Source: an uncultured Phycisphaeraceae bacterium
GTDB taxonomy: Bacteria > Planctomycetota > Phycisphaerae > Phycisphaerales > Phycisphaeraceae
Assembly (NCBI GenBank): GCA_964649195.1
Contig: CAZYPK010000004.1
Coordinates: 8,000-71,999, forward strand
Length of the DNA: 64,000 nt
Direction: 5' to 3'
Position numbers and translations under genes: made by a program. The stretch's first letter is position 1, and every line of letters starts with the position of its first letter. The notes below the pieces were generated by a model. That model saw only the letters and a program-made list of their open reading frames with translations, ran no database searches and had not been told where the DNA came from. Below are positions 16,031-38,135 of this stretch, in pieces.

Positions 16031-16070
16031 CGAACAAAGTTGCTCGCGTATGTAACAGACAAAGACTCTT

Positions 16071-16216: not shown

Positions 16217-16383
16217 AAGCCGCGACTCAACGAGTCGCGGACGTGAACAACCTGAAGCGGCGGAAATCGCGCAGTGACATAAGACCTCGAAAATCGTGAC
16301 CCGTCGGAACGCGGCTTCCTGTCATCCGCGCCGCCTTGCGCGCTTTCAGGCTGTTCGCCTCCGCGACGTGTCACGTCGCGGCT
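16217..16383 (+). repeat. Repeat family R2, copy B (shorter interior)
   Basis: CCGCGAC-TCAACGA-GTCGCGG ACGTGAACAACCTGAAG ... CTTTCAGGCTGTTCGCCT CCGCGAC-GTGTCAC-GTCGCGG. Lies 48 nt upstream of the ABC-F start. Confidence 0.8.
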
Positions 16384-16430: not shown

Positions 16431-18263
16431 ATGGCCATGCTTCTCAGTTGTCAATCTCTCAGCAAATCGTTCGGCCCGCGCCCGCTCTTTGAAGATGTTT
16501 CGATGGGCATCGAGGAAGGCGAACGCCTGGGCCTCATCGGGCCCAACGGCTCAGGCAAATCGACGTTGCTGAAAATTCTCGCCGGCATGGAGCAGCCTGA
16601 CACGGGCGACTTCACATCCAGACGAAATCTGCGCGTCAGCTACGTTGCACAGCGCGATGAGTTCGAAGAAGGCGCCGCCGCCATGTCTGCCGTCGTCGCC
16701 GCGCTGGGCGGGCGCTTGCATGATGATCACGAACGCGAAGTCGCCGCCCGGCGTGTGCTTGAAAACGTCGGCTTCACCGACATGGATCAGCCGGTCGCCG
16801 CGATGTCCGGCGGTTGGCGCAAACGGCTGGCGGTCGCCCGCGCCCTGGTCACCGAGCCTGATCTGCTGCTGATGGATGAGCCGACGAATCATCTCGATCT
16901 GGAAGGCGTGCTCTGGCTCGAGGATTTTCTCGACGCCGCGCCGATGGCCATGATCGTGATCACGCACGATCGCTACTTTCTGGAGAACGTCTGCAACCGG
17001 GTGCTGGAACTGAGCAAGGCTTATCCGCAGGGCACCTTCACCGTGCAGGGACCCTACAGCGAATTTCTCCGGCGAAGAGCGGACCATCTTGCCGCCCAGC
17101 TCAAGGAACAACAATCTCTGGCCACGAAGGTGCGCGAGGATATCCGCTGGCTCGGCCGCGGCGCCCAGGCCCGGCGAACCAAGGCGAAAGGACGAATCGA
17201 AGAAGCCGGCCAGCGCATGGGGCAGCTCGATGACCTGAAGAATCGCAACGCGCCCAACCGCGCCGCCGACATCAGCTTCACCGCCACCGGCCGGCTCACG
17301 CGGAACCTCCTCGTCGCCAAAGACATCGGCAAATCACTGGGCGGGAAACCGCTGTTTTCACAGTTGGAAATCACGCTCTCGCCAGGCTCATGCCTGGGCC
17401 TGCTCGGACCCAACGGCAGCGGTAAGACCACGCTCATCAATGTCCTCACCGGCAAGCTCCCCAGCGACACCGGCGGCGTCAAGCTCGCAGACAACCTCCG
17501 CATCGTCACCTTCACGCAGCATCGCGAGGAACTCGATCCCAAGCAGTCGCTGCGCGAGGCCCTGTGTCCGGTCAGTGATGTGCTCTTCTTCCGCGACCAG
17601 CCGATTCATGTCAATACCTGGGCTTCTCGGTTTCTCTTCCGCGCCGATCAGATGAACACCTCCGTCGGCGATCTCAGCGGCGGCGAACAGGCCCGCATTC
17701 TCATCGCGCGGTTGATGCTGGAGCCGGCGGACCTGCTCATTCTCGATGAACCGACGAACGATCTGGACATCGCTTCGCTCGAGGTGCTCGAAGAAAGTCT
17801 CGCAAGCTTTCCAGGCGCCGTGCTGCTGGTGACGCACGATCGCTACATGCTGGCGCGGCTGTCGTCGCAGTTGCTCTCGCTTGACGGCCAGGGGAATGCG
17901 AAGTTCTTTCCCGATTACGAACAGTGGGAATCGTGGAAGGATCGGCAGGAGGAAGCGCGGGGGAAAGAGGCGGGGAAGCGGAAAGAGGCACGGACGCAGG
18001 GCGATGACGCTGCTACGCCGCAAGCGGCGGGGAAGGTGAAGCTCACCTACAAGGAGCAGCGCGACTGGGACACCATCGAGCAGCGCATCCTCGAAGCGGA
18101 AGAGGAAGTGAAGTCACTTGAAGCCCGCACCGCCGATCCCGCCATCCTGATCGATCATCGCAAACTCAACGAGGCCTACGAAGTGCTGGGCAAGGCACAG
18201 GCGAATGTCGCGGCGCTGTACGAACGATGGGCGGAGCTGGAGGCGAAGGTCAAGGCCATCTGA
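16431..18263 (+). CDS. ABC-F family ATPase (two ABC domains, no TM domain)
   Basis: Two Walker A motifs (GPNGSGKST, GPNGSGKTT), two LSGG signatures and a C-terminal coiled coil. Start set at the ATG at 16431, downstream of repeat R2-B. Confidence 0.92.
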   Translation: MAMLLSCQSLSKSFGPRPLFEDVSMGIEEGERLGLIGPNGSGKSTLLKILAGMEQPDTGDFTSRRNLRVSYVAQRDEFEEGAAAMSAVVAALGGRLHDDHEREVAARRVLENVGFTDMDQPVAAMSGGWRKRLAVARALVTEPDLLLMDEPTNHLDLEGVLWLEDFLDAAPMAMIVITHDRYFLENVCNRVLELSKAYPQGTFTVQGPYSEFLRRRADHLAAQLKEQQSLATKVREDIRWLGRGAQARRTKAKGRIEEAGQRMGQLDDLKNRNAPNRAADISFTATGRLTRNLLVAKDIGKSLGGKPLFSQLEITLSPGSCLGLLGPNGSGKTTLINVLTGKLPSDTGGVKLADNLRIVTFTQHREELDPKQSLREALCPVSDVLFFRDQPIHVNTWASRFLFRADQMNTSVGDLSGGEQARILIARLMLEPADLLILDEPTNDLDIASLEVLEESLASFPGAVLLVTHDRYMLARLSSQLLSLDGQGNAKFFPDYEQWESWKDRQEEARGKEAGKRKEARTQGDDAATPQAAGKVKLTYKEQRDWDTIEQRILEAEEEVKSLEARTADPAILIDHRKLNEAYEVLGKAQANVAALYERWAELEAKVKAI

Positions 18264-18357
18264 ATAACACCACGAAATCAGGAAAGCAGGAAAACATGAA
18301 ATGCAGATCATCCATTCCGTATGGTCCCGCCTGGTTTCCTGATTTCATGGTTTTATT
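18263..18357. repeat. Inverted repeat between convergent ABC-F and isomerase genes (terminator-like)
   Basis: AATAACACCACGAAATCAGGAAAGCAGG and CCTGGTTTCCTGATTTCATGGTTTTATT, with a roughly 40-nt spacer. Confidence 0.75.
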
Positions 18358-18368
18358 TAGGGATGTTT

Positions 18369-22243: not shown

Positions 22244-23701
22244 ATGGCCATGGGCATGTTCATGCTGTTCCCCATTCTTCTGCTCGGCGGCGGCATGGGC
22301 GGCGCCAACGAACTGATCGATTACCTTCAGACCGAGCATTACTGGAAGACGCGCAACATCACCCCCGATGTGGCCACCCTTTCCGCCATGCTCGTCACCG
22401 ATCCCAAGGCCGAGGATATCTCCGCGCTGATCAGGCAACTGGGGCACGATGACTTCGACAAACGCGAGGCGGCCAGCGAAGCGATCGGCAGAAAAGGCCC
22501 GGGCGTCATCCCGCAACTGAAGGAAGCCGCCAAGTCCACGGACGCCGAGATCGCCGACCGGGCTTCGCGGCTGATCACTCATCTCTCCGGCGGCGACAGC
22601 GACCCCGCCATTCACAGGCTCATGATCATCCGCTCGCTGGGTGAAACCAAGGACAAGGCCGCCCTTGCGGCGCTCAAGACGCAGCTTGATTCGAAGGAGC
22701 CTTTCGCCGGCGAGTTTGCCCGCCGTGCGATCGCCAAAATCGAAGGCCTGCCTCATCAGCCGGCCACCACTTCGATCGAAAGCTACGAGAAGGATGTGTG
22801 GCTGCTGCCCAACGGCGTCAAGCTGGTGACGCAGATGACGATGACCTCCGGCGGTCCCGCCGACTGGGCCAGGATTCTGGCCAACGCCAAAAATCCCCTG
22901 GGAGAAGAGGTGCCCAAGGAGGACATGTTCAAGGAAGTACAATCCGGTGTGGCCATGGCGCTCAACACCGTGGGCAACATCCGCATCGACGGCTTCACGC
23001 TGGGCCTGTCGGACAGCCCCGGCCCCGACTCGGGCTTTGTCGTCATGCTGGTGCGCGGCCAATACAGCCGGGAGAAGCTCAAGAACCTGTTCAAGTCGAA
23101 GGGCATCGAGGTGACCCGGGAGGATGGCATCGATGCGGTGACGCCGCCGAATGCCAACATGAAATTGCTGTTCGTCTCCGATGAGCTGCTGCTGGTCATC
23201 GGCGGTCCGCGCGATGCGCAGGCCTGGCCGGTGAAGGAGATGACGGCGGCGATCAAGGCGGGCAAGGGCACCCTCGGCGAAGACGCGGCGATGGTGAAGC
23301 TGATCAACGCCGCCGACCGCAAATCAGGCGGCTGGGCCGCGATTCAGATGACGGAGACGTATCGCTCAGGCGGGCCGTGGATGAAATCGTTTGACACCGT
23401 CCTGGCCAGTCGCAAAAGCGAAAAGGGCAAAACATCCATCAAGGTCGTCGGCACGGGAAGCGATGCCGATGCGGTTCAACACTCGGTCAAGGAAATGAAC
23501 ACCGGCCTGGAGCAGATGCGGGGCAAGATGAATGAAATCGCCGGCATGATGCCCAAGCCTTTCATCGACTTCGCCAACAGCCTGAAGGTGGAAGCCGATG
23601 GCAAATCGGCCACGCTCACCGGCAGCATCGAAGGCGGCTTCGAGGACATCATCGGCTCCATGCTCTTCCCCATGATGATGCTGGGTGGCCCGGGCTTTTG
23701 A
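22244..23701 (+). CDS. Hypothetical secreted/membrane protein with HEAT-like N-terminal repeats
   Basis: GAAAGGA RBS before the ATG at 22244, then a hydrophobic N-terminus. DDFDKREAASEAIGRKGPGVIPQLKEAAKS is a repeat-type segment. No enzymatic motif found. Confidence 0.65.
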   Translation: MAMGMFMLFPILLLGGGMGGANELIDYLQTEHYWKTRNITPDVATLSAMLVTDPKAEDISALIRQLGHDDFDKREAASEAIGRKGPGVIPQLKEAAKSTDAEIADRASRLITHLSGGDSDPAIHRLMIIRSLGETKDKAALAALKTQLDSKEPFAGEFARRAIAKIEGLPHQPATTSIESYEKDVWLLPNGVKLVTQMTMTSGGPADWARILANAKNPLGEEVPKEDMFKEVQSGVAMALNTVGNIRIDGFTLGLSDSPGPDSGFVVMLVRGQYSREKLKNLFKSKGIEVTREDGIDAVTPPNANMKLLFVSDELLLVIGGPRDAQAWPVKEMTAAIKAGKGTLGEDAAMVKLINAADRKSGGWAAIQMTETYRSGGPWMKSFDTVLASRKSEKGKTSIKVVGTGSDADAVQHSVKEMNTGLEQMRGKMNEIAGMMPKPFIDFANSLKVEADGKSATLTGSIEGGFEDIIGSMLFPMMMLGGPGF

Positions 23702-23765
23702 GAACCTGAGTTCGGGATACGAATGAGCCGCGACGTAACACGTCGCGGAGATGAACGGCAAGATG
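23702..23765 (+). repeat. Repeat family R2, solo end D
   Basis: GAACCTGAGTTCGGGATACGAATGAGCCGCGACGTAACACGTCGCGGAGATGAAC resembles the left end of copy A, including the outer GAACCTGAGTTCG. No second hairpin nearby. Confidence 0.7.
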
Positions 23766-23879
23766 GCGTTGTCCATCATGCGAAGGATCATCGGACGCGA
23801 AAACGACCGGGACATGGTTTGAGGCTTGGCTTTTTCTGTCTCCTGTCTCCTGTCTCCTGTCCCCTGTCCCCTCTGACCT

Positions 23880-24674
23880 TCACCGACCCTTCCCATCGCC
23901 GCCCACCTTTTCGTACATCTTCGCCAGCCGGTGTGCGTGTTCATCGTAGGCCGCTTCGAAGAGGGCGGCGGCGCGTGCCGGTTCCATGATGCACGCGGCG
24001 GTGAGCACCTTGGGCGGCCGGCCCGCCTCGGTGAGCAGGGCGGCCACATGCGCCTTGATCGCGTTGATCAGCACGCAGCCGCCGACCGTCGATCCGGGCG
24101 CCACGGGTGATTCCAGACCCTCGATGCGCACCATCGAGTCGCCGGGCGGTGCGCCGGTGTCGAGCGCCAGGTCGGCAACGTCCGAAAGTTTGACGCCTTG
24201 CGGATGGCGGCTGGCGCTGACCTGGCTGTGACGCCGGCTGACGATGGCGACGACCTTCATGCCTGCCGCCTTGCAATGCTCGGCGAACTCGACGGGGACC
24301 ACGTTGCAGCCGCCCGATGAAATGATGAGCGCCGCATCGCGCGGACTGATGTCGAAATTGCGCAGGATGCGGGCCGCCAGGCCGGTGACGTTTTCAAGGA
24401 ACATCGCCTGCCGCTGGCCGTTGGCGCCGACGACGTTGTTGTGAAAGGTCAGCGAGAGCTCGACGATCGGATTGAATCCGGGAAACGAGCCGTAGCGCGG
24501 CCACATCTCCTCGACCATGATCCGGCTGTGCCCGCTGCCGAACACATGCACCATGCGGCCGGCCAGGATCGCGTCGGCGAACCACTGCGCCGCTTGGGTG
24601 ATCTGCGTTTGCTGCTTCGCAATGGCATCGAGAAGATCGCGGCAATGCTCAAGATACTGTTGGGCTGGGGTCAT
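23880..24674 (-). CDS. SIS (sugar isomerase) domain protein, UPF0309-like
   Basis: VHVFGSGHS and ISSGGCNVVPVE motifs. Start set at 24674 (MTPAQQ), because the upstream part of the ORF is encoded by repeat R1. Confidence 0.8.
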   Translation of the reverse strand: MTPAQQYLEHCRDLLDAIAKQQTQITQAAQWFADAILAGRMVHVFGSGHSRIMVEEMWPRYGSFPGFNPIVELSLTFHNNVVGANGQRQAMFLENVTGLAARILRNFDISPRDAALIISSGGCNVVPVEFAEHCKAAGMKVVAIVSRRHSQVSASRHPQGVKLSDVADLALDTGAPPGDSMVRIEGLESPVAPGSTVGGCVLINAIKAHVAALLTEAGRPPKVLTAACIMEPARAAALFEAAYDEHAHRLAKMYEKVGGDGKGR

Positions 24675-24765
24675 GGCGCTGAAGATACCTTTTGTTTCCG
24701 CGTTCCGCAGCCGATGGTGCGTTTGCACGACTGTCACGCTATGCTTTCGCGCTTTGCAAACCGTA

Positions 24766-24866
24766 GGGATTTCCGAATAACCCCCGATGTACCGTGAACC
24801 AGGGGATCGCGATTTGCGAAGCCGCAAGCGGCTTGGGCGTGAGATTATTCAGGAATCTCAGCACCC
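24766..24866 (-). repeat. Repeat family R1, copy 3 (reverse orientation)
   Basis: The reverse complement matches copy 2 along its length. Lies between the divergent SIS gene and hisA. Confidence 0.85.
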
Positions 24867-24905
24867 AAAATCCGACATCCGACATCCCAAATCCGAAATT
24901 CATCC

Positions 24906-25631
24906 ATGCACCTATTCCCCGCCATCGATCTCCGCAACAATCAGGTCGTTCGCCTTCAGCAGGGCGATTACGACAGGCAGACCACCTATGGTTTGGATCC
25001 TGTCGAACAGGCCCGCCTTTTTGCGGAGGCGGGGGCGACGTGGCTGCATGTGGTCGATCTGGATGGCGCACGCACCGGGCACATGGTGCATCTGGAGATC
25101 ATCCGCCGCATCTGCAAGGAGACGAAGCTGAAGGTCGAAGTCGGCGGCGGGGTGCGCAGCGAAGCCTCCATCGATGCGCTGCTCAACGCCGGCGTCACCC
25201 GCGTCGTGCTGGGCACGGCTGCTCTTGAGCGATGGTCCTGGTTCGAGGGACTCATGGGCAACCCGACCTACCGCGGCCGGCTGGTGCTGGGCCTCGATGC
25301 CCGCGAAGGGATGCTGGCCGTCAGCGGCTGGGAGAAGACGACCAACGTCAGCGCCATCGACATTGCAAAAAAAGTCGGCGACTGGCCCGTCGCCGCGATC
25401 GTCTATACCGACATCGCCACCGATGGCACGATGAAAGGCCCCAACGTGGAGGCCACGCGGGAAATGGCCCAGGCCACGCATGTCCCCATCGTCGCCAGCG
25501 GCGGCGTGGGCACGCTGGCCCATCTGCGGGCCTTGCGCGAACTGCCCATCCAGGGCGCGATCATCGGCAGATCGCTGTACGAAGGGGCGTTCACCATCGA
25601 GGAAGCCTTGGAAGCGTTCGAGGGGGAGTGA
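24906..25631 (+). CDS. hisA: ProFAR isomerase (histidine biosynthesis)
   Basis: MHLFPAIDL, VVDLDGA, VEVGGGVRS, IVASGGVG and IIGRSLYEG blocks. Confidence 0.93.
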   Translation: MHLFPAIDLRNNQVVRLQQGDYDRQTTYGLDPVEQARLFAEAGATWLHVVDLDGARTGHMVHLEIIRRICKETKLKVEVGGGVRSEASIDALLNAGVTRVVLGTAALERWSWFEGLMGNPTYRGRLVLGLDAREGMLAVSGWEKTTNVSAIDIAKKVGDWPVAAIVYTDIATDGTMKGPNVEATREMAQATHVPIVASGGVGTLAHLRALRELPIQGAIIGRSLYEGAFTIEEALEAFEGE

Positions 25632-25811
25632 AAGCTGTCAGCCATCAGCCATCAGCTTTCAGCTTCAAGGCATTCGTCGTTCACGCAGCCGCTTGCGGCG
25701 TAGCAATCCGCCGCCGCGAGCTTCTTCACCACGATTGATTTCATGCGGCCCATTCACCCTATGATGCCCTCTCCAAGCTGATAGCTGATAGCTGACCGCT
25801 GATAGCTTTTC
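25630..25811. repeat. Heptamer-periodic inverted repeat filling the hisA-dinG spacer
   Basis: GAAAGCTGTCAGCCATCAGCCATCAGCTTTCAGCTTCAAGG and CTCCAAGCTGATAGCTGATAGCTGACCGCTGATAGCTTTTC. The centre contains an R1-like core (AGCCGCTTGCGGCGTAGCAATCC). Confidence 0.8.
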
Positions 25812-25813
25812 CC

Positions 25814-27961
25814 ATGCCTTTTGATCCGCATGACATCCTCGCGCCCGGCGGTCCCATCGCACGCAGGCTGGGCGGGCAGTACGAGCTGCGGCCGCAGCAG
25901 AGCGCGATGGTCGATGCGGTTTCGCGCACGCTCAGTGCCGGCGGCAAGCTGCTCGTCGAAGCGGGCACCGGCGTCGGCAAGTCGTTCGCCTACCTGCTGC
26001 CCGCGCTGGCGGCGGTCATCGGCGAAAGGGCCACGCATGAAAACCTGCCCACGCAGCGGCGAAAACGCATCGTCATCTCCACCCACACCATCGCGCTCCA
26101 GGAGCAACTGATCAGCAAGGACATTCCGCTGCTGCGGGCGGTCGTGCCTGATGAGTTCTCCGCGGTGCTGGTGAAGGGGCGCGGCAACTATGTCTCCCGT
26201 CGCCGGTTCAGACAGGCGTCGGAGAAGGCGTTCCAGCTTTTCGGCGAGCCGGAACAGATACGCTCGCTGGAGGTGGTGGCGAACTGGATCGGGAAGACCG
26301 AGGACGGCACGCTGGCCTCGATGCCGCCGCTTGAGAGGGCGGGCATCTGGGAGAAGATGCAGAGCGATTCGGGCAACTGCATGGGCAAGCGATGCCCGAC
26401 CTACAGGAGCTGCTTCTATCAGAACGCCCGAAGGCGGATGGAGAATGCCGATGTGCTGATCACCAATCACGCCCTCTTTTTTTCCGACCTGGCGCTGCGG
26501 GCGGCAGGCGTCGGTTTTCTTCCCGCGTATGACTACGTGATTCTTGATGAAGCCCACACCGTCGAGGATGTCGCCAGCGATCACTTCGGGCTGCGCAGCA
26601 GCGAAGGGCAGATTCGCTTTCTCCTGCACGGTCTTTTTCAGCCTCGCAGCGGCAAGGGGTATCTGCCGACGCTGGAGCATCAGACCGATTCCGACTTTCT
26701 TTCGCGGGCCTGCGAAGCGGTGATGCAGGCGGAGAAGGCGACCAATCGCATGTTCGACGACCTGATCGACCATCAGGAGACGCGCGGCAGAAGCAACGGC
26801 CGCATCGGCGAACCGAATGTCGTCAGCAACCCGATCACCCCGGCGCTGCGCGAACTGGCGCTGTCACTGAAACTGCTCAAGGATCATTGCGACCGCGAAT
26901 CGGATCAGTTCGAGCTGGCCGGCTACATCAATCGCTGCGAGGAGGCGGGCGCGGTGGTGGCGGCCCTGATCGAACAGACGATGATCGACTGCGTTTACTG
27001 GGCGGAAACGCGAACCGGCGGAAGACAGGGAACCCGCAGAAACGTCACGCTCACCTGCTCGCCCATCGATGTCGGCCCGCTGATGAAAGCCCGGCTGTTC
27101 GAGGCCCAAACAAGCCACGATGAACCGATGGCGGTCGTGCTCACCTCCGCCACCCTGGCGACCGATTCGCGCGGCGGGGCGGCCGCTTCAGGCGCGCGGC
27201 GCGGCGGCGGTGAGCAACGATATGTGCGCGATGGTGAAGAAGATGACGTGGAGACGGGGAGCGAAGCCGCAAGCGGCGGCAGGGCGTTTGTCCATATCGC
27301 ACGCAGGCTTGGCTGCGATGATGCGGCGACGATGCAGCTTGGGTCGCCGTTTGATTATGAAAGCCAGGCGGAACTGATCATCGAAGCCGCGATGCCTGAG
27401 CCGATGGCGGGCGGTTATTTTGAGAGGCTGTGCCCGACGATCCTGATGCACATCGATCGCAGCGACGGCGGGGCGTTCGTGCTGTTCACCAGCTTCGATC
27501 TGCTTCGCCGGTGCGCCCAGTGGCTGCGCCAGCCCCTGGCGCAGCGGGGCATGCCGATGCTGGTGCATGGCGAAGGCGAACAGCGCACTCAGTTGCTCGA
27601 ACGCTTCCGCGGCGATTCGCGCAGCGTGCTGCTGGGCGCCGACAGCTTCTGGCAGGGGGTCGATGTGCGAGGCGAGTCGCTTCGCAACGTGATCATCACC
27701 CGTCTGCCTTTCGCGGTGCCTGATCGTCCGCTGATTGAAGCGAGAATGGAACGGATCAAGGCGCGGGGCGGCAACCCGTTCGGCGAATACTCGCTGCCCG
27801 AGGCGATATTGAAATTCAAGCAGGGCTTTGGCCGGCTGATCCGATCGAAGTCCGATCGCGGCACGGTGGTGGTGCTCGACAGCCGCATCACCACGAAAAC
27901 GTATGGCCATCAGTTCATCGCCGCACTGCCGAAGCTGCCGGTGAAGCGGGTGCGGTCTTGA
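25814..27961 (+). CDS. dinG: ATP-dependent DNA helicase, DinG/XPD (Rad3) family
   Basis: Walker [13 protein letters not shown] box ILDEAHT, Fe-S cysteines ([14 protein letters not shown]) and a C-terminal helicase motif VLDSR. Confidence 0.9.
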
Positions 27962-28135
27962 GGGGGGAGGCAAGTTCCGGGTTCCGAGTTCCGAGTTCCG
28001 AGTTCCGAGTTGAAAGGCAAGGGGGAAGAGGGGAAGGCATTGAGGCACGGAGGGAAGAGAAGGGGGCCCGGCGACCTTCAGCCTTCAGCATTCAGCCTTC
28101 AGCATTCAGCATTCAGTCTTCAGTTGCTTCATCTG
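27962..28135 (+). repeat. Block of heptamer tandem repeats (GTTCCGA x4; CCTTCAG/CATTCAG x7)
   Basis: Direct reading. Related to the arms of the 30375-30615 palindrome on the other side of the HEAT gene. Confidence 0.8.
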
Positions 28136-28143
28136 GCTTCGCG

Positions 28144-28185
28144 CACCTGGGCCGGGGCTTCGCGGACTCAGCCCCAGCCACCCGC
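28144..28185 (+). repeat. Repeat family R4, right arm only
   Basis: CACCTGGGCCGGGGCTTCGCGGACTCAGCCCCAGCCACCCGC, directly abutting MITE R3 copy 2. Confidence 0.75.
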
Positions 28186-28186
28186 C

Positions 28187-28372
28187 GTCGGAAGCAAAAA
28201 TTCCAAATCACAAATTCCAAATCTCAAACAAACTCGAAAGCGAGCCGAACCGGGCAAAACCGATCAGAGACCGGATTCCGTTTGATTGCGTTTTTTTGTT
28301 TTTGGATCTTGTTTGGAGTTTGGGCATTTGTCATTTGGAACTTCCGGCAGGTGGCTTGGATACCGGGGGTAC
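28187..28372 (+). mobile_element. MITE family R3, copy 2 (5'-truncated)
   Basis: The core CGGAAGCAAAAATTCCAAATCACAAATTCC...CATTTGGAACTTCCGGCAG is about 90 percent identical to copy 1 by eye. Overlaps the stop of the HEAT gene. Confidence 0.75.
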
Positions 28373-30295
28373 CGGGGGCGCCGGTCGCAGGCGATAGCGG
28401 TTGACCACGTACCAGTTTCGCAGCAGGTCAAGCTGAAAACGAGCCAGTTCGTTGTCGGCCCAGATCCACAGCCGCGGGGCGTCATCGGGCAGGTGGTTTT
28501 CCAGCACATACCACCAGCGATCGACATCGAGCATTCGCAGGAGCTCGGGTCGCTGGTCGCCGCGCGGGGTGAGCAGCCGTTCGAGCGCCAGCGGGTCGTT
28601 GCGGTGGAGCAGGGCGAGCAGGACGGTGCCGGCGGGCAGGTCTTCGCGGAGGAGAAACTGATGGGCCCGGGCGGTCATGTCGGCGATGGCGTGTACGGGC
28701 TGGTCCTGCATCCACAGGGCGAGCTGGATGATTTCGATGACGCCGGTGCGGCCGGCGAAGTCGTCGGCCATGCGATGCAGCAGGCCGACCTCGTTGCCGG
28801 TGAGGCCGATGAGCATCGCGGCGGAAAGCTTCGCCTCATCGTGATAGCGATAGACCGGTTTGAGCGGATCGCCCTTGAGGTCCAAGGGCGCCAGCAGGGT
28901 GCGAATGAGCCTGGCTGTTTCGTCGGCGGGCAGCCGCCTGGCGGCCAGCGAGACCGCCTGATCGCGGATCGCCGATTTCTCGCTGATGCACAGCGGCAGA
29001 AAATCCTCGCCGGCCGGCGCAGCCATCGCCCGCAGAATGGCCAGGTGAATCTGCTCATGCACATCCGGCGGCGGCTTGAGCGTCGAAAGCGGCGCACGCT
29101 TTTGGGCATGAGCTTCGGGGATGCCTTCGATGGTCGCCAGCCACGCGACGGGATCATCGGCGATGGTCACGATGTCGCTTTGCCTGATGGCCGCGTCGAT
29201 GAGCAGCGTGCGATCTCGAAACAGGCAGGCCAGGATCAGGGGGCGAAGGTTGACGTTGTCATAATCCTCGCGCCTGCACTTGGCAAGGAAGCGCACCAGT
29301 GCCGTGTAACCCGGATCATCGCTTGCGGGCGGGGCCTGTCCCGGTTGAAGTTCACCGGATCGCGGCGCCAGGGGCAGCGCGAGGATCGCCCGCCAGAAAG
29401 CCACCTGGTTGTCATCGTTGACCGCGGCGGGGCCTTGATCGAGAAAGGCGATCAGCGCGGCCCGGGCTTCATCACCGGCTGCAAGGCCCAGGGCGTAGGC
29501 GGCCATGGCGCGAACGCGCGGCGAAGCGGCGGCATCGTTGAGCGCGGCAACGGCGGCGGCGCGGCTCTGCGATCGGTTACGCAGCGAGGCCCACAGCATG
29601 GCCTCGGCGACATCAGGATCGGTCAGGTGAGCGGGGGTTGACGGCGGCTTGATCGGCAGCCCGATCAGTTGCGAAAAAAGATACGCATGGCGGGCCACGA
29701 TGGCGTGCGGATCATCGGTCAGGCACGAGAGCATCGATTCATAAACGGCGGCGGCCTGAAGGTTCCTCATGGCCACAGCGGAGCCGCGCATCTCGGCCAG
29801 GCAAACCAGGGCGTTGTACCGCACCGTCGGATCGACATCGGCGGCAAGCTGATAAAGGAGCGATTGCACACGCTCATCGCCGGCGTGTTCGGGCAGATCC
29901 GCGACAAGCTGCATGCCTCGTATCCGCTCTTCGGGATCAACATCGCGCACCACGATGCCCAGCCACCGCAGCCAATGGTCCGGCGGGATGCGATCGCGGG
30001 TCCAATAGCCCAGTTGGTCGAGCGTGATCAGCAACTCGTGGAAGATCGTTTCATCCTCCACCTTCAGCCTGGCAATGGCCCCTTCGACGACCGCGGGATC
30101 AGACTCGGCCCGGCGAAGCAGATAGGTCTGCCCGGCGGCGCGGATCGAGGCATCGTCGCTCTGGAGCTTGTTCAACTGCATCGCCCGATGCACCGGCGGC
30201 AGAATCACCCTGGCCAGCGGCACCGCCAGCGTCGTCACGATCAGAACGCTGGCGACGAAGAGGTGCCAGTTTCGCTTTTTGGGATGATGAGACAT
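28331..30295 (-). CDS. HEAT/ARM-repeat protein with N-terminal membrane anchor, hypothetical
   Basis: Start set at the ATG at 30295 (MSHHPKKRNWHLFVASVLIV), because the upstream part of the ORF is palindromic repeat. Repeats include DPTVRYNALVCLAEM and SPRVRAMAAYALG. The last 7 codons are supplied by MITE R3 copy 2. Confidence 0.7.
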   Translation of the reverse strand: MSHHPKKRNWHLFVASVLIVTTLAVPLARVILPPVHRAMQLNKLQSDDASIRAAGQTYLLRRAESDPAVVEGAIARLKVEDETIFHELLITLDQLGYWTRDRIPPDHWLRWLGIVVRDVDPEERIRGMQLVADLPEHAGDERVQSLLYQLAADVDPTVRYNALVCLAEMRGSAVAMRNLQAAAVYESMLSCLTDDPHAIVARHAYLFSQLIGLPIKPPSTPAHLTDPDVAEAMLWASLRNRSQSRAAAVAALNDAAASPRVRAMAAYALGLAAGDEARAALIAFLDQGPAAVNDDNQVAFWRAILALPLAPRSGELQPGQAPPASDDPGYTALVRFLAKCRREDYDNVNLRPLILACLFRDRTLLIDAAIRQSDIVTIADDPVAWLATIEGIPEAHAQKRAPLSTLKPPPDVHEQIHLAILRAMAAPAGEDFLPLCISEKSAIRDQAVSLAARRLPADETARLIRTLLAPLDLKGDPLKPVYRYHDEAKLSAAMLIGLTGNEVGLLHRMADDFAGRTGVIEIIQLALWMQDQPVHAIADMTARAHQFLLREDLPAGTVLLALLHRNDPLALERLLTPRGDQRPELLRMLDVDRWWYVLENHLPDDAPRLWIWADNELARFQLDLLRNWYVVNRYRLRPAPPVPPVSKPPAGSSK

Positions 30296-30374
30296 CGGAA
30301 ATACACGCGGAGACACGACAAGGATAGCAGGCGGAGGATGACAGGGTAACGATTCCGGGCAAGCATAGTCCGAT

Positions 30375-30615
30375 GGGAGAGGGGAAGGCACGAAGGCACA
30401 GAGGCACGAATGCTGAATGCTGAATGCTGAAGGGGGGGGAAATGGCCAATGACCATTGCAAATTGCAAAATGCAAATTGAAGAGAGGCAGACGCGCATCC
30501 CCAGGTGATCGGTTGCCCGCTCCGCCATTTTGCAATTTTCACTTTGCAATGGTCATTGGCCATTTTCCCCCCTTCAGCATTCAGCATTCAGCCTTCGTGC
30601 CTTCCCTCTTCCCCT
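30375..30615. repeat. Long imperfect palindrome with heptamer-periodic arms
   Basis: One arm is GGCACGAATGCTGAATGCTGAATGCTGAAGGGGGGGGAAATGGCCAATGACCATTGCAAATTGCAAAATGCAAA. The other is TTTGCAATTTTCACTTTGCAATGGTCATTGGCCATTTTCCCCCCTTCAGCATTCAGCATTCAGCCTTCGTGCC. Confidence 0.85.
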
Positions 30616-30801
30616 GATCGCTCCGTCGGCTCAGGTCCGAACCCGGTTATTCCACGGAAGAAGGCGGGGCGCCGCGGGATTGGCAAATTGCGGGGGATAT
30701 TTGGCCGATGACAGATTGGAATGTTGTCACCGGCGCGAACCCGTTTCGCCCGGGGGGCGTATCGTTGGGAACCACCTTGCAACACGTTTGGAGTCGAGAA
30801 G

Positions 30802-32049
30802 ATGATGCCCTATGCCGCCACAAACTTGAATGCCTTGCTTCGTCGCCTCGTGATCCTGCCGCTGCTGGCGCTGGCCCTGCTGGCGCTGCCCGGCTGTTTC
30901 ATTCTTCCGCTGGAGCCCAAGACCAAGGGCGCGGCGACGGATCAGTACCGGCTGGAGATGGAGTTCCTGCCCAACGCCCGCATGGTGCGTGAAGACACCA
31001 GCCCGTGGTGGGATCTGGGACGCATGGCGTTTGTCGAGGGCACCGATCGCATCATCATCCTTGGCCGCACGACCTCCTACGCGGACAAGGATGAGGATCA
31101 CGAACCCATTCCCGACACGATGCGCGACCGCAAGCTCGAGCGCGTCTGGGTCACCATCCGCAGCGATATTCCGCTGGGCAAGGCTCAGAAACTGGAAGAC
31201 ATGGAAATCGAATTCCTCACGGGGTACGATGTGAACAACCTGGACTCCAAGGGCTTCTTCAACGGCCCGGCCCTGATGAAAGGTTTCATCAACCTGGTCG
31301 AGGAATCACCGGACAACGTCGTGGTGATATTCGACATGGAAGTTCGTCCCAACAAGCCGTTCCAGGCTGAGAACTGGAAGATCGAAGGCAAGCACACGAT
31401 TCCGGTGATTCCCGAAGGGCGCATCGCCACCCGGGCGGTTACGCGCGATGTGACGCAGGCGGCGGAGCAGCCGGTCCCGGCCGTATCGGTGGCGAGTGTG
31501 CCCGCCACGCCGGTCGCCGCGCCGCTGGTGCCGCCTGCGATTGGCAACGGCAACGCGGGCGGCGATGCTCAGCCTGCCGCGGATGTCGGCAACACCACGC
31601 CCGTCGTCGCCAAGGAACTGCCGGTCAAGTCGGTCGTTGGCCGGTGGTCGTATGACACGCCGGGCTTCGACTATCGCTTTCAGTTCGAGGACAACGGGAA
31701 GTTCATCTACTCCAGCACGCGCGGCGATGGCGTCAATGACGGCTACGAAGCGATGATGGTGTCCGGTTCCTACGAAGTGAAACGCAACAAGACTTCCGAG
31801 TGGGTGGTGCTGGTGATCGATCGCGACACCTTCGGCGGCTTCAAAGGCGAGGATCGCACGGCGCTGCTGAGGCTCGAATGGAACGGGGACAATCCGATCC
31901 TCACCGGTGAACACACCATGACGCGCTCCAACAAGGCGGTCCGTTTCGCCTGCAAGCCGGGCGGATACCAGGACATGAACAAGGTGCTGCCCCCGCGCGG
32001 TCGCCGCAAGGACCTGCCCCCGGAGCCGAATCCCAAGCCGTTCTGGTGA
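30802..32049 (+). CDS. Hypothetical lipoprotein
   Basis: Signal peptide with lipobox LALPGC starting at the ATG at 30802. 415 aa with no family recognised. Confidence 0.7.
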   Translation: MMPYAATNLNALLRRLVILPLLALALLALPGCFILPLEPKTKGAATDQYRLEMEFLPNARMVREDTSPWWDLGRMAFVEGTDRIIILGRTTSYADKDEDHEPIPDTMRDRKLERVWVTIRSDIPLGKAQKLEDMEIEFLTGYDVNNLDSKGFFNGPALMKGFINLVEESPDNVVVIFDMEVRPNKPFQAENWKIEGKHTIPVIPEGRIATRAVTRDVTQAAEQPVPAVSVASVPATPVAAPLVPPAIGNGNAGGDAQPAADVGNTTPVVAKELPVKSVVGRWSYDTPGFDYRFQFEDNGKFIYSSTRGDGVNDGYEAMMVSGSYEVKRNKTSEWVVLVIDRDTFGGFKGEDRTALLRLEWNGDNPILTGEHTMTRSNKAVRFACKPGGYQDMNKVLPPRGRRKDLPPEPNPKPFW

Positions 32050-32203
32050 TCGAGGTTTTTTGAAGTCCAACGATCCAATAAGCCCCTAAGCCCCGCCCGG
32101 AAGGGCGCGGGCCAAGGGGTGCCCGATGAACATTTTGTTGACGATACACGCTGTGGATCGATCACCCCTTGGCCCGCGCCCTTCCGGGAGCCTGAGAACT
32201 TTT

Positions 32204-32322
32204 GGGTGGCTGGGGCTGAAGGCTCTGCGCAAGCCCCGGCCCAAGGGACCATCAGCGATCAGTTGCCTCACCTTGCTTTGTGCGCCTGGGCCGGGGCTTC
32301 GCGGACTCAGCCCCAGCCACCC
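32204..32322. repeat. Repeat family R4 palindrome (GGGTGGCTGGGGCTGA ... TCAGCCCCAGCCACCC), copy 1, nested in outer inverted repeats 32079-32366
   Basis: Arms GGGTGGCTGGGGCTGAAGGCTCTGCGCAAGCCCCGGCCCAAGG and CCTGGGCCGGGGCTTCGCGGACTCAGCCCCAGCCACCC. Confidence 0.8.
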
Positions 32323-32389
32323 GGACCCCCGGAATAAGTTCTCAGGCTCCGGGCGGGGCTTATTCGAAGTTCAGGCTCGGACATTGCCG

Positions 32390-33715
32390 TCACGGCTTCA
32401 CCGGCACCGCCACGCACCGGGCCACCTCCCTGCCATCGTCGGTGTTCCATATCCGCACTTCACCATCGTGACCGCCTGATGCGGCGCGCCGCGTGGCCGG
32501 GTGCAGGGCGATCGCGTAAACGAAATCCTGATGGCCGTCGAACTGCTTCAGCGGCTTGCGGTCCCCGGCGTTGAACAGCCGCACCGATTTGTCGGCGGAG
32601 CAGGCCAGCAGCGCATCGCCATCGCGGATCAGTTCATAGACCTCGCCGCCCAGGCCCATGTCGCCGATGCGCTTGGAATCGCCCAGGTTCCAGAGCATGA
32701 TCCGTCGGTCCCGTCCGCCGGAATAAACCTTGTCGCCGTCGGGATGAAACGCCACCGCATGCACCTGGTCGTTGTGGTCGAGGTAGCCTGCGATCATTTC
32801 GCCTTGCCTGGTGAGGTCGAAAGCCCTGGCGGTCTTGTCGCGGCTGGCGGAGGCGAGCTTCGTGCCGTCGTGACTGAAGGCCACGGCGCTGACCCAGTCG
32901 GAATGGTTGGAGATGGTGAGTGTGGGTTCGTAAGACTGTCCATCGAACAGGCGAATGACGCCATCGCCGCCGGCGGTGGCGATGTGCCTGCCATCCGGGC
33001 TGAACTTCACATCGAACACGACATCGGTCGCGGTGTGGAGCACGTGCTTCACCTTGCCGTCGGCCAGTTGGATCAGGCGGACCTCGCCCGATTCGCCGGG
33101 CGTTCCACCGGCGACGGCAAGCGTCCGGCCATCGGCGCTCAGCGCCAGCCCGTGGATGCGCTGGGGCATGTCGCCGATGCGGCGCTGAAGCGCGCCATCG
33201 GCGGGGCTGCGAAGAAGAAGCTCGTGGTAGCCGCCGATGATGAGCGTTGAACCGTCCGCGTTGAACAGCATCGCGGTCACAGGCAGCGGCCGGGCATAGC
33301 TTTCGGGCGCGGCGGGGTGTTCGACGCGGGGCAGAATCTCCATCAGCGGCAGCTTCACATCGCCGCCGTCGTATTTCGCCCCTTGCTCGATCCACTTCTT
33401 CACCCGTGCGATCTGATCCCTGGGCAGCGGATCGGCCTTCCTGGGCATGCGCTCATCCTGGTCATCGACGATGAGCAGACGATACAGCTCACTTGCATCA
33501 GGCTTGCCAGGAGTGACCGCCGGTTCCTCGCTGGAGCCGGGTTTGAGGAGATGCTCGAACGTGTCCAGCCGGTATTTGCTTTTTGCCTCCTTTGCACCGT
33601 GACAGCCCTGGCAATTCCTGACCAGCAGAGGTGCGATGTGACGGCGAAAGCTGATCGCATCCTCAGCGAAGGCGGGGGAAGGAAGAAGAAGACAAAGGAG
33701 AATGATCCATCGCAT
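32390..33715 (-). CDS. Planctomycete-type cytochrome c domain (PSCyt1) plus WD40 beta-propeller protein
   Basis: Signal peptide and a CQGCHG heme-binding motif, followed by DERMP. Multiple WD40-like repeats (SPDGRH, SHDGTK, HPDGDK). Confidence 0.85.
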   Translation of the reverse strand: MRWIILLCLLLPSPAFAEDAISFRRHIAPLLVRNCQGCHGAKEAKSKYRLDTFEHLLKPGSSEEPAVTPGKPDASELYRLLIVDDQDERMPRKADPLPRDQIARVKKWIEQGAKYDGGDVKLPLMEILPRVEHPAAPESYARPLPVTAMLFNADGSTLIIGGYHELLLRSPADGALQRRIGDMPQRIHGLALSADGRTLAVAGGTPGESGEVRLIQLADGKVKHVLHTATDVVFDVKFSPDGRHIATAGGDGVIRLFDGQSYEPTLTISNHSDWVSAVAFSHDGTKLASASRDKTARAFDLTRQGEMIAGYLDHNDQVHAVAFHPDGDKVYSGGRDRRIMLWNLGDSKRIGDMGLGGEVYELIRDGDALLACSADKSVRLFNAGDRKPLKQFDGHQDFVYAIALHPATRRAASGGHDGEVRIWNTDDGREVARCVAVPVKP

Positions 33716-33738
33716 GTTGCGTACTCAAGTTGGCATGG

Positions 33739-33778
33739 ATAAGAGCCGCGACTCAACGAGTCGCGGAGATGAACAGTC
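33739..33778 (+). repeat. Repeat family R2, solo end E
   Basis: ATAAGAGCCGCGACTCAACGAGTCGCGGAGATGAAC. Confidence 0.7.
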
Positions 33779-33779
33779 T

Positions 33780-33862
33780 GGACTTCCCCACTCCCGGTGG
33801 GCGCGGCGAAAGGACGGCATAATGCTGTCCTTTCGCCGCGCCCACCGGGAGTGGGGAAGTCC
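33780..33862. repeat. Perfect 36-bp-arm palindrome (83 bp)
   Basis: GGACTTCCCCACTCCCGGTGGGCGCGGCGAAAGGAC, then GGCATAATGCT, then GTCCTTTCGCCGCGCCCACCGGGAGTGGGGAAGTCC. Arms verified base by base. Confidence 0.9.
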
Positions 33863-33976
33863 AATTGGTTATTATTTATTCGTTATTGCTTATTTCTTAT
33901 TGAAGGGACGATGGACAGCGGCGAAGGCTGCTCCCCCAATAAGCAATAAGCAATCATCAATAAATAATAACCAATT
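33863..33976. repeat. AT-rich heptamer-periodic inverted repeat
   Basis: Arms AATTGGTTATTATTTATTCGTTATTGCTTATTTCTTATTG and CAATAAGCAATAAGCAATCATCAATAAATAATAACCAATT around a GC-rich 35-nt centre. Confidence 0.85.
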
Positions 33977-34087
33977 GCCTTTCCTGTCCCCTGTTCCCTC
34001 CGACTTCCGACACCCTCAGCCCGTTGGCTACAATGCCGGGTGTCGCAGGAGTTGATTGTTCCTGCCTTGCAACTGAAAGGTGCTCGA

Positions 34088-35026
34088 ATGTTTCATTTTC
34101 AGGTGTTGTTTTTCTTGCGCAGCTTCCTCATCGCGGGGCTGCTGCTGATCGCTTCCGGGTGCAGTCAAGCCGATGCGCCCAAAGTCGGCGGCCCCGTGGA
34201 AGGCAAGCGGCTCGATGGCGCGCAGGTCGCCGATGCGACGGCAGAAAAGAAAACCACCCCCCCGGAAGCCCCGGAAACCCCGGAAACCAACCTCCCCGAA
34301 AATGAGAAGAAGAAGCGCGACGAATGGCGCGACAAGAAGACCGGCAAGCCGGATGAAAATGATCCGATCGCCCAGGCGAACATCACCCTTCGCCCCAGCC
34401 TCGATCCCAACAAGCAGATCGACAAGAACGCCGCCGACCCCGCCGCGAAGAAGCCGGAGAATCCCACCGATCTGGTCAAGCCGCTGCTCGACCCCGACGC
34501 GGAGAATCCCTTCTTCGATCCGAACAACCCCGACTTCATTCCCGCCGACCGCAACCGGTACAAGACCTTCGACATCGGGAAGCTCGAAAAGAGCGGTGGC
34601 CATCTCGTCGTCCCTTTCATGGATCTCTCAGGCTTCCCGTACACCGGCATGGTCGGCGCCCCGGAGCCGGCCAAGGATGGCAAGGAACCGGCCAAGCCTG
34701 AGTTCACCATTCCCGACGCCATCAAGGCGCTCGACGGCAAGCAGGTGGTCATCGCAGGCTACATGATGCCCATCGATTTCGAGGACGGCGGCACGAACGA
34801 GTTCGTGCTCACGCGGCAGGTCCCCTCCTGTTTCTACTGCGTGCCTCCGCAACTCAACGACTGGGTGGAGGTGAAGATGAAGGACGGCAAGCGCGTGCCT
34901 TACGTCCCCGACGGGCTGATCGAACTCTACGGCGTCATCGAGGTCGGCGAAATGAAGGAGGACGGCTTCGTCGTCAACATGTACCGCATGACCGGCACCA
35001 AGATGATCGAATCAAAAAAGGAGTGA
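34088..35026 (+). CDS. Lipoprotein with C-terminal DUF3299-like domain
   Basis: Lipobox IASGC, a low-complexity K/P/E linker and a C-terminal GKQVVIAGYMMPIDFEDGGTNEFVLTRQVPSCFYC block. Confidence 0.7.
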   Translation: MFHFQVLFFLRSFLIAGLLLIASGCSQADAPKVGGPVEGKRLDGAQVADATAEKKTTPPEAPETPETNLPENEKKKRDEWRDKKTGKPDENDPIAQANITLRPSLDPNKQIDKNAADPAAKKPENPTDLVKPLLDPDAENPFFDPNNPDFIPADRNRYKTFDIGKLEKSGGHLVVPFMDLSGFPYTGMVGAPEPAKDGKEPAKPEFTIPDAIKALDGKQVVIAGYMMPIDFEDGGTNEFVLTRQVPSCFYCVPPQLNDWVEVKMKDGKRVPYVPDGLIELYGVIEVGEMKEDGFVVNMYRMTGTKMIESKKE

Positions 35027-37917: not shown

Positions 37918-38135
37918 TCAAGGTCGTTTATTTCTCCGAAGCGCCTTTATCAGGAAACTCCAAATGACAAAGCTCAAGCTCCAAACAAGCTCCAAAATAC
38001 GAACATGGAACAAACAAGGAATTCGGATCACGCAGTATTTCCGCCTTTTTTCTTTGGAATTGGAGCTTGTTTGAGATTTGGTGATTGCGATTTGTGATTT
38101 CAGACCGCACGTCAACCAAGAATTAACCGGCCCTG
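37918..38135 (+). mobile_element. MITE family R3, copy 3 (diverged), inserted in a terminator hairpin
   Basis: Flanked by a perfect 9-bp direct repeat ACGGACTCC (37909-37917 and 38136-38144). Removing it restores the hairpin CCCACGGACTCCCGTCCGTGGG, identical to the one at 55429. Confidence 0.85.

Follow-up and report, generated by a model that had tools for sequence, protein, structure and literature searches.

Why should the spacers of a bacterial chromosome hold palindromes whose arms are built, unit after unit, from tandem repeats of seven nucleotides? The question is raised by a stretch of 64,000 nt (the window) from contig CAZYPK010000004.1 of an uncultured Phycisphaeraceae bacterium (assembly GCA_964649195.1), in which an initial annotation had pointed to intergenic foldbacks with a pervasive heptamer periodicity. 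The analysis given here confirms that the heptamer repeats are real in the window. It further shows that the arrays gain and lose whole 7-nt units (8-nt units in a minority) between close strains, and that about half of them form the complementary arms of long imperfect stem-loops that fill a spacer from stop codon to start codon. The same paired-array architecture is shown for the arms of cassettes that carry a gene of family PF05635, the 23S rRNA intervening-sequence (IVS) protein. The arrays are probably simple-sequence repeats (SSRs) of heptanucleotide units in a Phycisphaerae chromosome, of the short tandemly repeated repetitive (STRR) kind, prone to slippage and in half of the cases forming IVS-like stems.

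Heptamer arrays in the intergenic DNA

Among the 76 rows returned by Tandem Repeats Finder for the window, 24 have period 7, seven have period 14 and three have period 21. Exact tandem runs with a primitive period of 7 number 12, against 0.15 ± 0.65 expected from Markov-3 simulations, and counts above three are reached at none of the other periods from 1 to 30; with mismatches tolerated, period 7 has 11 arrays and each other period from 4 to 12 two or fewer. Intergenic DNA, which makes up 9128 nt or 14% of the window, has a lag-7 identity of 0.308 versus 0.263 ± 0.008 at lags that are not multiples of 7, i.e. 5.6 standard deviations (SD) above background, with harmonics at lag 14 (0.287) and lag 21 (0.289). 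Coding DNA shows period 3 only, so that both the pervasive preference for seven and its restriction to spacers, as first proposed, are borne out over the 64 kb. Placement agrees, with 22 of the 24 period-7 Tandem Repeats Finder rows and all 11 mismatch-tolerant arrays being intergenic. Most of the lag-7 signal comes from about 25 arrays totalling 704 nt (7.7% of intergenic bases), and masking them lowers the lag-7 identity to 0.276, 1.5 SD over background. Other planctomycete loci, 1.2 Mb in total, also have an excess of period-7 runs, although at about one-ninth of the frequency seen in the window, and paired heptamer arrays occur in three of these loci (L007, L011 and L019) and in a Schlesneria locus (L050). 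The suggestion that the process is specific to one lineage therefore fails, paired arrays being present in other Phycisphaerae as well as in Schlesneria.

The window is a chromosomal segment of an uncultured Phycisphaerae species. Its GC content is about 62%, and its housekeeping genes include hisA, a DinG-like helicase (dinG), type III and type I glutamine synthetases, an ABC-F ATPase, LptF/G, glycosyltransferases, HEAT- and WD40/PSCyt1-type planctomycete proteins and guanylate kinase. The closest relatives of the DinG-like protein are found in Phycisphaerae and Planctomycetota metagenome-assembled genomes at no more than 61% identity, and relatives of HisA in metagenome assemblies reach 93-95%. 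The arrays that had been listed are all present, at or within a few bases of where they were placed, and they do lie at gene ends and starts:

12271-12416: copy of family A, resembling miniature inverted-repeat transposable elements (MITEs), with heptamer-periodic arms (TTCCAAA/TCGCAAA/TCTCAAA)
15993-16031: solo AGGGCCT-type array, without partner or gene, just past the stop codon of the type III glutamine synthetase
23836-23872: unpaired array CTGTCTC/CTGTCCC ×5.3, between convergent gene ends; unit again ×2 at 33985-33998
24868-24899: unpaired array AAATCCG/ACATCCG ×4.6 (core TCCGA), ending 6 nt ahead of the hisA ATG; unit again at 33999-34012
25633-25665: left arm of the hisA-dinG hairpin, TCAGC-NN units (TCAGCCA ×2, TCAGCTT ×2), beginning 2 nt past the hisA stop
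25776-25807: right arm of the hisA-dinG hairpin, AGCTGAT ×4.6 (GCTGA-NN), ending 6 nt ahead of the dinG ATG at 25814
27973-28011: unpaired array GTTCCGA ×5.6, directly after the dinG stop; inverted partner not found
28075-28123: array CCTTCAG/CATTCAG ×7, without a local partner
30375-30479: left half of a nested palindrome (239 nt in all) between divergent genes; from outside in, 8-mer GAAGGCAC ×3.4 (30384-30410), GAATGCT ×3.4 (30408-30431), a G-run and unique segment, then ATTGCAA ×3.6 (30455-30479)
30526-30613: right half of this palindrome, matching the left in mirror order (92% over 75 nt)
33855-33984: AT-rich heptamer hairpin, ATTGCTT-type versus CAATAAG-type arms of 48 nt, 85% complementary, with a 34-nt loop
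49933-50067: hairpin filling the spacer of two co-directional genes, outer arms GGTCAGA/GATCAGA versus CTGACCT/CTGATCT
53834-53864: 5' arm of the PF05635 cassette, AGGGCCT/AGGGAGG heptamers, beginning 9 nt past the stop of the upstream oxidoreductase
53920-54282, plus strand: PF05635 (TIGR02436) gene, 120-aa product, between the AGGGCCT arms
54317-54347: 3' arm of the PF05635 cassette, CCTAGGC/CCTCCTC, ending 17 nt ahead of the downstream oxidoreductase ATG
62645-62687: 8-mer variant array AAAACAGG ×5.4, 12 nt upstream of the start of a minus-strand VWA gene

Some of these arrays share units with others or adjoin other repeats. The 110-nt loop of the hisA-dinG hairpin contains a 23-nt piece of dispersed repeat family C. 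The unit of the array at 28075-28123 is shared with 30573-30596 and is the reverse complement of that at 30408-30431, 2.3 kb away; the same array abuts a hairpin of family B (28120-28187) and a copy of family A (28189-28346). Further copies of family A lie at 52410-52515 and, partially, at 37959-38100, giving 4-5 copies in total at 90-94% identity. The nested palindrome is laid out as an 8-mer array, a 7-mer array, a unique segment and a second 7-mer array, in reversed order on the opposite arm. Hairpin 49933-50067 holds an unpaired inner block, TGAGATTTGAAATC ×2.6 (49957-49994). Arrays related to that at 62645-62687 occur at 8099-8135 and at 18274-18306, the latter being one arm of hairpin 18260-18360. 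A listed array at 42797-42835 is weak, with 2-3 units only. Adjoining hairpin 33855-33984, between divergent genes, is also a near-perfect palindrome of 85 nt (33779-33863), whose 42-nt arms are 98% complementary around a 1-nt centre.

An inverted partner within 500 nt was found for only about half of the arrays. Paired are those at 25633/25776, 30375-30613, 33855/33937, 49933/50036, 53834/54317 and 18260/18330, together with the arms of the MITE-like copies; unpaired are those at 8099, 15993, 23836, 24868, 27973, 28075 and 62645. The description of the arrays as foldback arms therefore holds for many of them and fails for the rest; in particular, the GTTCCGA array (27973-28011) and the CCTTCAG/CATTCAG array (28075-28123), which had been taken for a single foldback, are not complementary to each other. 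Where pairing exists, the predicted folds are far more stable than shuffled controls, with minimum free energies of -81.1 kcal/mol (z -7.7) for 25629-25812, -158 kcal/mol (z -15.4) for 30370-30618 and -59 kcal/mol (z -4.4) for 49925-50072. In co-directional spacers, the stems span from a few bases past the upstream stop to 6-17 bases ahead of the downstream start. The inflation of open reading frame (ORF) predictions, as first noted, is real: across the palindrome, ahead of its likely start MSHHPKK at 30295, the stop-to-stop ORF 28331-30535 encodes PFPPPSAFSIQHS. In practical terms, arrays of this kind lengthen predicted ORFs and may pass for repeats in a coding sequence.

The window holds at least ten unrelated units, and the initial impression of sequence diversity is to that extent correct. 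Several arrays nevertheless share a 5-nt core, TCAGC-NN or TCCGA-NN, and three families, CATTCAG, AGGGCCT and CAGGAAAA, recur at three loci each. The hisA-dinG arms have the core TCAG[C/A], followed by two variable bases, in common with the CATTCAG and GGTCAGA arrays, and TCCGA is found in the GTTCCGA and AAATCCG arrays. A single CTGA/TCAG motif for all arrays was considered and rejected; it fits the TCAGC, the TCAGA and perhaps the TCCGA arrays only, and is at odds with AGGGCCT, CTGTCTC, ATTGCAA, ATTGCTT, CAGGAAAA and GAAGGCAC.

Are the palindromes, then, ordinary signals in RNA? Rfam at gathering thresholds gave no match anywhere in the window, which contains no rRNA, and ARAGORN found neither tRNA nor tmRNA in it, which argues that the palindromes are not known structured RNAs. 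It is very improbable that they are intrinsic bidirectional terminators, or stabilisers of mRNA 3' ends like the repetitive extragenic palindromic (REP) sequences and bacterial interspersed mosaic elements (BIMEs) of enterobacteria. Stable stems do stand right past stop codons at 25633, 27973, 49933 and 53834, and a stabilising or coupling role has been proposed for the cyanobacterial STRR hairpins (PMC2670836). Yet a terminator scan of 23000-35000 gave nine sites versus 9.4 expected from shuffling, none of them in an array-holding spacer; U-tracts are missing; the loops measure 34-450 nt; and palindromes also sit between divergent starts (30375-30613, 33855-33984) and inside operons whose downstream gene needs expression, as between atpH and atpA in the cassettes described below. 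A promoter scan of the 23-35 kb region likewise gave no site coinciding with the arrays.

Arrays gain and lose whole units between close strains

No contig with exactly the window's HisA or DinG is on record, and strains were compared in a sister species whose HisA, 93% identical to that of the window, occurs in identical form on at least 10 contigs from different samples. The hisA-dinG spacer of this species holds a palindrome of the same NN-TCAGC/GCTGA-NN type as the window. Its left-arm units are TTTCAGC, AGTCAGC, TATCAGC, CATCAGC and TAACAGC, and its right-arm units GCTGAAA, GCTGATA and GCTGACT. Unit counts vary among contigs that are overall 96.5-99.6% identical (TAACAGC ×4, ×3 or ×2; TTTCAGC ×1, ×2 or ×3; GCTGATA ×1 or ×5), and one allele of the spacer is identical in four independent assemblies. 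Over 20 kb, the intergenic insertions and deletions include differences of 7, 7 and 14 nt within heptamer arrays, and an 8-nt difference lies within a GAAGGCAC array. Steps of 7 and 14 nt at an orthologous spacer point to replication slippage or unequal exchange, and the variation in unit number that slippage would produce, as envisaged in the initial annotation, is thus seen between strains. The two hisA-dinG arms change independently of each other. Within their units the CAGC/GCTG core is constant and the other three positions are variable, so any unit can pair with any unit of the opposite arm; and because a periodic arm pairs in any register, slippage would leave the stem intact.

A slightly more distant relative indicates when the arrays arrived. 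Locus L091, with a HisA 90% identical to that of the window, has the same gene order (hisA, dinG, HEAT, an unnamed gene, WD40), but its spacers measure 25-293 nt and contain no arrays, versus 182-425 nt in the window; between dinG and HEAT, for instance, L091 has 25 nt and the window 369 nt. Since L091 is syntenic with short, array-free spacers, the arrays and their companion repeats, i.e. other small dispersed repeats, are recent additions in the lineage of the window, and the arrays have since grown and shrunk by whole units.

Could the palindromes be ordinary MITEs, i.e. a few non-autonomous families with repetitive terminal inverted repeats, spread by a transposase encoded elsewhere in the genome? 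Insertion is implied by the L091 spacers, which lack all of the repeats, and the GAAGGCAC and TTTGAGA units occupy non-orthologous positions in the sister species; families also recur within the 64 kb, namely family A in its 4-5 copies of 90-94% identity, and CATTCAG, AGGGCCT and CAGGAAAA at three loci each. Family A indeed has several near-identical copies with terminal inverted repeats, but most heptamer palindromes are single-copy within the window, the units are of at least ten unrelated kinds, and half of the arrays are partnerless. Change occurs in place, by whole units and independently in each arm. Target-site duplications were not identified, and a Pfam scan of the window's unassigned ORFs found no domain of a transposase or of a REP-associated tyrosine transposase (RAYT), only two PIN-domain genes. 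The likeness to REP/BIME and MITE elements extends to small palindromic intergenic repeats that nest in each other, and the window has both a REP-like family D and the MITE-like family A; the difference lies in the lack of any RAYT or transposase gene seen in it and, to our knowledge, in the strict 7-nt internal periodicity, for which neither class is known. An origin of the arrays as a whole from ordinary MITEs is accordingly rated unlikely.

The arrays are embedded in a mosaic of small dispersed repeats, which comprises the MITE-like family A, a hairpin family B, a family C and the REP-like family D. Family B (28120-28187, 32193-32323, 45510-45639) has a 36-nt arm, GGGTGGCTGGGGCTGAGTCCGCGAAGCCCCGGCCCA, that is identical in the three copies and 97% complementary within a copy, and it adjoins heptamer arrays or 14-mer repeats. 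Family C (9633-9715, 16070-16148, 24766-24857, 62730-62774) is about 80 nt long, with the ends CTGAATAAC...GGTTATTCA, and usually lies upstream of a gene start; it has no match in Rfam; a small mobile element and a leader motif in common use are both conceivable. The REP-like hairpin of family D, GAGCCGCGACTCAACGAGTCGCGGACG, occurs in at least six spacers (9957-9998, 16218-16257, 23725-23756, 33741-33767, and 36638-36680/36813-36855). In the sister species this hairpin is conserved, and an inverted pair of it there (L081:13123-13150/13300-13330) brackets the whole spacer downstream of dinG. Strains of that species also show a 43-nt presence/absence polymorphism (GTGTCGTTCAATGCGCTGTCGATCATCATGCTCGATTGCACAC) in the spacer adjoining clpS (L081:9463 versus L082 and L085), which may be a very small mobile insertion.

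Larger repeats are present as well. A 184-bp direct repeat, 100% identical (46365-46548 and 47529-47712), flanks about 1 kb with a PIN-domain (VapC-like) gene at 47001-47390, and a second PIN gene lies just upstream of it at 45961-46356; the region has the look of a toxin-antitoxin module that was recently duplicated or inserted. Another direct repeat, of 209 bp and 99.5% identity, is found at 12460-12668 and 13427-13635. It falls in a region of about 4 kb (9508-13710) with a GC content of 0.55-0.59, ORFs without a Pfam match and many dispersed repeats, which may be an island or a decayed mobile region.

PF05635 cassettes with heptamer arms

One of the window's palindromes contains a gene. The product of 53920-54282 matches Pfam PF05635 (E 1e-35) and NCBIfam TIGR02436 (E 9e-36), the 23S rRNA intervening-sequence protein, a four-helix bundle related to Avd of diversity-generating retroelements (DGRs). 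The AGGGCCT arms on either side of it are 31 nt long and 97% complementary, and in the minimum-energy fold they pair around the whole PF05635 ORF (z -5.3). The cassette stands between two GFO_IDH_MocA genes and not in rRNA. A profile search of the six frames of the window gave no other PF05635 copy or remnant. The protein had no tblastn match in a phage collection, so that stand-alone cassettes of this kind are not obviously Avd genes of phage DGRs.

A comparison of PF05635 loci, 25 in all, drew on homologues from three independent sources, namely nine metagenome loci (38-82% identity), ten genes from complete plasmids of cyanobacteria, Azospirillum and Gemmatirosa, and five further Phycisphaerae loci. 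At about 21 of the 25, clear tandem 7-nt arrays (8-nt in about one-third) lie directly beside the PF05635 gene; the remaining four have weak versions. Among 39 flanks, 16 have an array score of at least 10, all at period 7 or 8, a score that 1.25% of random 130-mers (n = 2000) reach whatever the period, and 0.4% when the period is 7 or 8. The arrays are almost always inverted on the two sides of the gene, with a unit peculiar to each lineage, and the lineages concerned are Planctomycetota, Cyanobacteria, Gemmatimonadota, Alphaproteobacteria and those behind AT-rich metagenome contigs; at least four phyla are represented. The only clear non-inverted case is L103, a plasmid of Pseudanabaena galeata, with (CTAAAAG)×17 and (CCAAAAG)×10 in direct orientation.

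The host sites of these cassettes are diverse. Three marine Phycisphaerae lineages share one position of the PF05635 gene, which separates atpH (delta) from atpA (alpha) and lies within inverted 7/8-mer arms:

L115:3940-4416: PF05635 cassette between atpH and atpA
L116:3962-4464: PF05635 cassette between atpH and atpA
L121:3946-4411: PF05635 cassette between atpH and atpA, its 5' arm overlapping the final atpH codons

At these three loci, 7/8-mer arrays outside coding sequence occur only beside the PF05635 gene; L120 has no 7/8-mer array over threshold, and L123 has additional arrays elsewhere. The atpH-atpA cassettes encode proteins that are 54-60% identical and have no arm sequence in common, and within each cassette the arm pair is 85-100% complementary. 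The Azospirillum copy lies inside the large-subunit rRNA gene, with heptamer arrays as its arms, and by that location is a true intervening sequence. PF05635 genes are also found inside CRISPR-Cas operons (L103, L106, L107), twice at cas6/cas4 and once at cas10/cmr3. One cassette is present in two Nostoc copies that are a single CCTCTGC unit apart. The two copies, in strain PCC 7120, have about 0.85 kb in common at 87% identity, a segment that starts in the 3' part of an ISL3-family transposase gene and extends across the cassette; their upstream neighbours differ, so that the comparison does not define the cassette's own mobility.

Gene-less and gene-carrying palindromes also share a unit. 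Arms made of the 8-mer GAAGGCAC enclose no gene in the window (30384-30410) or in the sister species, and enclose a PF05635 gene in L123 (GCA_024102815.1, Phycisphaerae). At L123:2074-6207, a DnaE2-like ORF of 1377 aa is left open by two insertions within it. The first, which separates the DNA_pol3_alpha and finger domains, carries the PF05635 gene in another frame, within the GAAGGCAC arms; the second, between the finger and HHH domains, is a 7/8-mer array block (5196-5437). An intervening-sequence-like cassette appears here to be tolerated within coding sequence.

This association bears on the initial notion of a recognition code. The arrays might be multimeric targets of a protein that recognises 7-nt units in either nucleic acid, such as the oligomeric PF05635 protein or, at translation starts, ribosomal protein S1 or a Csp-like protein, each unit family having its own reader or affinity. 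PF05635 genes do sit among such arrays, clearly so at about 21 of the 25 loci. Avd, the DGR homologue, is reported to work with the reverse transcriptase when cDNA is made from the DGR RNA. Avd is also a nucleic-acid-binding protein. The TCAGC-NN arrays keep a core of 4-5 nt with 2-3 positions free over more than 20 units and two species, but the register-independent pairing of the arms explains that conservation equally well. Arrays ending 6-17 nt ahead of a start codon (24899, 25807, 50067, 54347, 62645) recall the similarly placed TAACTGA repeats of Beggiatoaceae (PMC4679880); however, the absence of arrays from L091, with the same genes, argues that they are not needed for the expression of those genes. 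Units are moreover very diverse in one genome, fully replaced between lineages at one orthologous site (atpH-atpA) and unstable in copy number among strains. A code in this sense is improbable; a single one is unlikely with at least ten different units, the 5-nt core in some arrays leaving limited room for it.

Kinship with known repeats and possible roles

Heptamer tandem repeats have been known in cyanobacteria since 1990, with CCCCAGT, TTGGTCA and CAACAGT as classic STRR units. The consensus units from Tandem Repeats Finder in the window match none of these three (STRR1-3), and the arrays thus belong to the general class and not to the named cyanobacterial families. That no mechanism or family had been described, as the initial annotation held, is contradicted by the literature, which already contains heptamer SSRs, STRR hairpins, inverted pairs in Xanthomonas and hairpins in Geobacter (PMC4679880, PMC4692102, PMC2670836, PMC2700814). 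According to Mrazek et al. (2007), as cited in PMC4679880 and PMC4692102, heptanucleotide units are the most abundant long simple-sequence repeats in most prokaryote genomes, and polymerase slippage has been proposed as their cause. Hairpins of 7-bp STRR units lie between genes of filamentous cyanobacteria, e.g. hupS-hupL, where transcript stability or translational coupling has been proposed (PMC2670836); Calothrix PCC 7601 has heptanucleotides (as cited in PMC4692102), and, by the title of Vioque 1997 (cited in PMC2858038), an STRR lies inside an RNase P RNA gene. Xanthomonas has inverted pairs of heptamer arrays (PMC4692102) and GGGAATC heptamers, and Nostoc has GGGGA(T/C)T (PMC4679880, PMC4692102). 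TAACTGA heptamers stand just upstream of start codons in Beggiatoaceae and occur also in cyanobacteria and Bacteroidetes (PMC4679880), and the class 3 sites of Geobacter metallireducens are hairpins of five tandem MTYCTGA heptamers (PMC2700814). In the Coxiella 23S intervening sequence, which carries an S23p (PF05635) ORF, tandem GACAGAT heptamers vary in number among strains, and RNase III cuts at the first repeat (PMC4990558).

The window arrays are a planctomycete addition to this known repeat class. They are like the cyanobacterial STRR sequences in their 7-nt tandem units, in the presence of several unrelated units per genome, in their intergenic position and in forming potential hairpins between co-transcribed genes; they differ in their host (Planctomycetota, about 62% GC) and in the strain-level step changes and the PF05635 cassette link shown here. 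With prokaryote heptanucleotide SSRs at large they share an over-represented period 7, intergenic placement, length and sequence that vary among close relatives, some inverted pairs, and slippage as the proposed cause. Those published arrays, however, have been treated as simple repeats or G-quadruplex formers, and the texts consulted hold no description of nested mirrored palindromes or of arrays that bracket a gene. The TAACTGA and Geobacter repeats likewise consist of heptamers in tandem that often precede a start codon by a few nucleotides, and the opposite strand of MTYCTGA, TCAGRAK, resembles the window's TCAGC/TCAGA cores; unlike them, with one dominant unit genome-wide, the window has many units in mostly locus-specific arrays. 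With 23S rRNA intervening sequences the window cassette shares a PF05635 ORF within complementary ends that form a long stem, and the arms are built of heptamers in Azospirillum, as are the tandem repeats at the RNase III cut site in Coxiella. It differs in lying between protein-coding genes, and most window palindromes are without an ORF. Leptospira, too, reportedly has a 23S rRNA intervening sequence with an S23p (PF05635) ORF (Ralph and McClelland 1993).

Reading the arrays as slippage-prone heptamer SSRs with IVS-like stems also suggests how they may be borne by their host. The paired arrays would act as stems, most likely in the transcript, where a stem might juxtapose the flanking cistrons or be excised by RNase III in the manner of 23S rRNA intervening sequences; both outcomes could make an insertion inside an operon tolerable. 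The gene-less palindromes may be empty or decayed versions of PF05635/IVS elements, and the unpaired arrays plain slippage products or half-elements.

Several points weigh against this reading. Strand asymmetry in the arms of PF05635 cassettes is uninformative as to stems in RNA versus DNA: G.U-compatible mismatches are no commoner on the sense strand, at 27 versus 23 on the antisense strand and a further 4 versus 4, and sense and antisense duplex energies are alike (10/19, Wilcoxon p 0.71). Half of the arrays have no partner, co-transcription is uncertain for the palindromes between divergent starts, and the L103 arrays are direct, not inverted. The PF05635 gene is present in only one of about seven window palindromes, and a remnant is not detectable in the gene-less ones, so that common descent would follow from architecture and shared units only. 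The strain comparisons are based on metagenome assemblies. Finally, the preference for a 7-nt unit is left unexplained; the contact length of the polymerase has been put forward in print as its source.

It is possible, although the idea must count as doubtful, that gene-less heptamer palindromes and PF05635 cassettes together are one widespread class of intervening sequences that colonises transcribed DNA in many phyla, the periodic arms being intrinsic to it and maintained. The sites colonised would include intercistronic spacers, essential operons (atpH-atpA), cas operons, 23S rRNA and even open reading frames. Selection for an RNase III-type stem, or else concerted evolution, could keep the arms complementary, and the arms might be bound by the Avd-like PF05635 protein or generated with its help. 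PF05635 has more than 7,400 detected homologues, and we know of no role for it outside DGRs. If the wider view were true, the STRR, TAACTGA and Xanthomonas/Nostoc G-rich heptamers would have a common origin, and a function would be at hand for a family of thousands.

The window extends the heptamer-repeat phenomenon to Phycisphaerae and offers a natural experiment, in which co-specific strains differ by whole units and a syntenic relative is array-free. The strain-level steps of 7 and 14 nt at an orthologous spacer, the array-free relative and the association of PF05635 with arrays are new. In the literature searched, no paper was found that links PF05635 genes with heptamer arrays in general; the link appears undescribed there, and its generality, together with arm pairing that is conserved despite complete sequence turnover, is apparently new. 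Should the PF05635 link prove general, an old descriptive puzzle would become a set of testable questions on RNase III processing, on PF05635 binding, and on the tolerance and spread of the cassettes.

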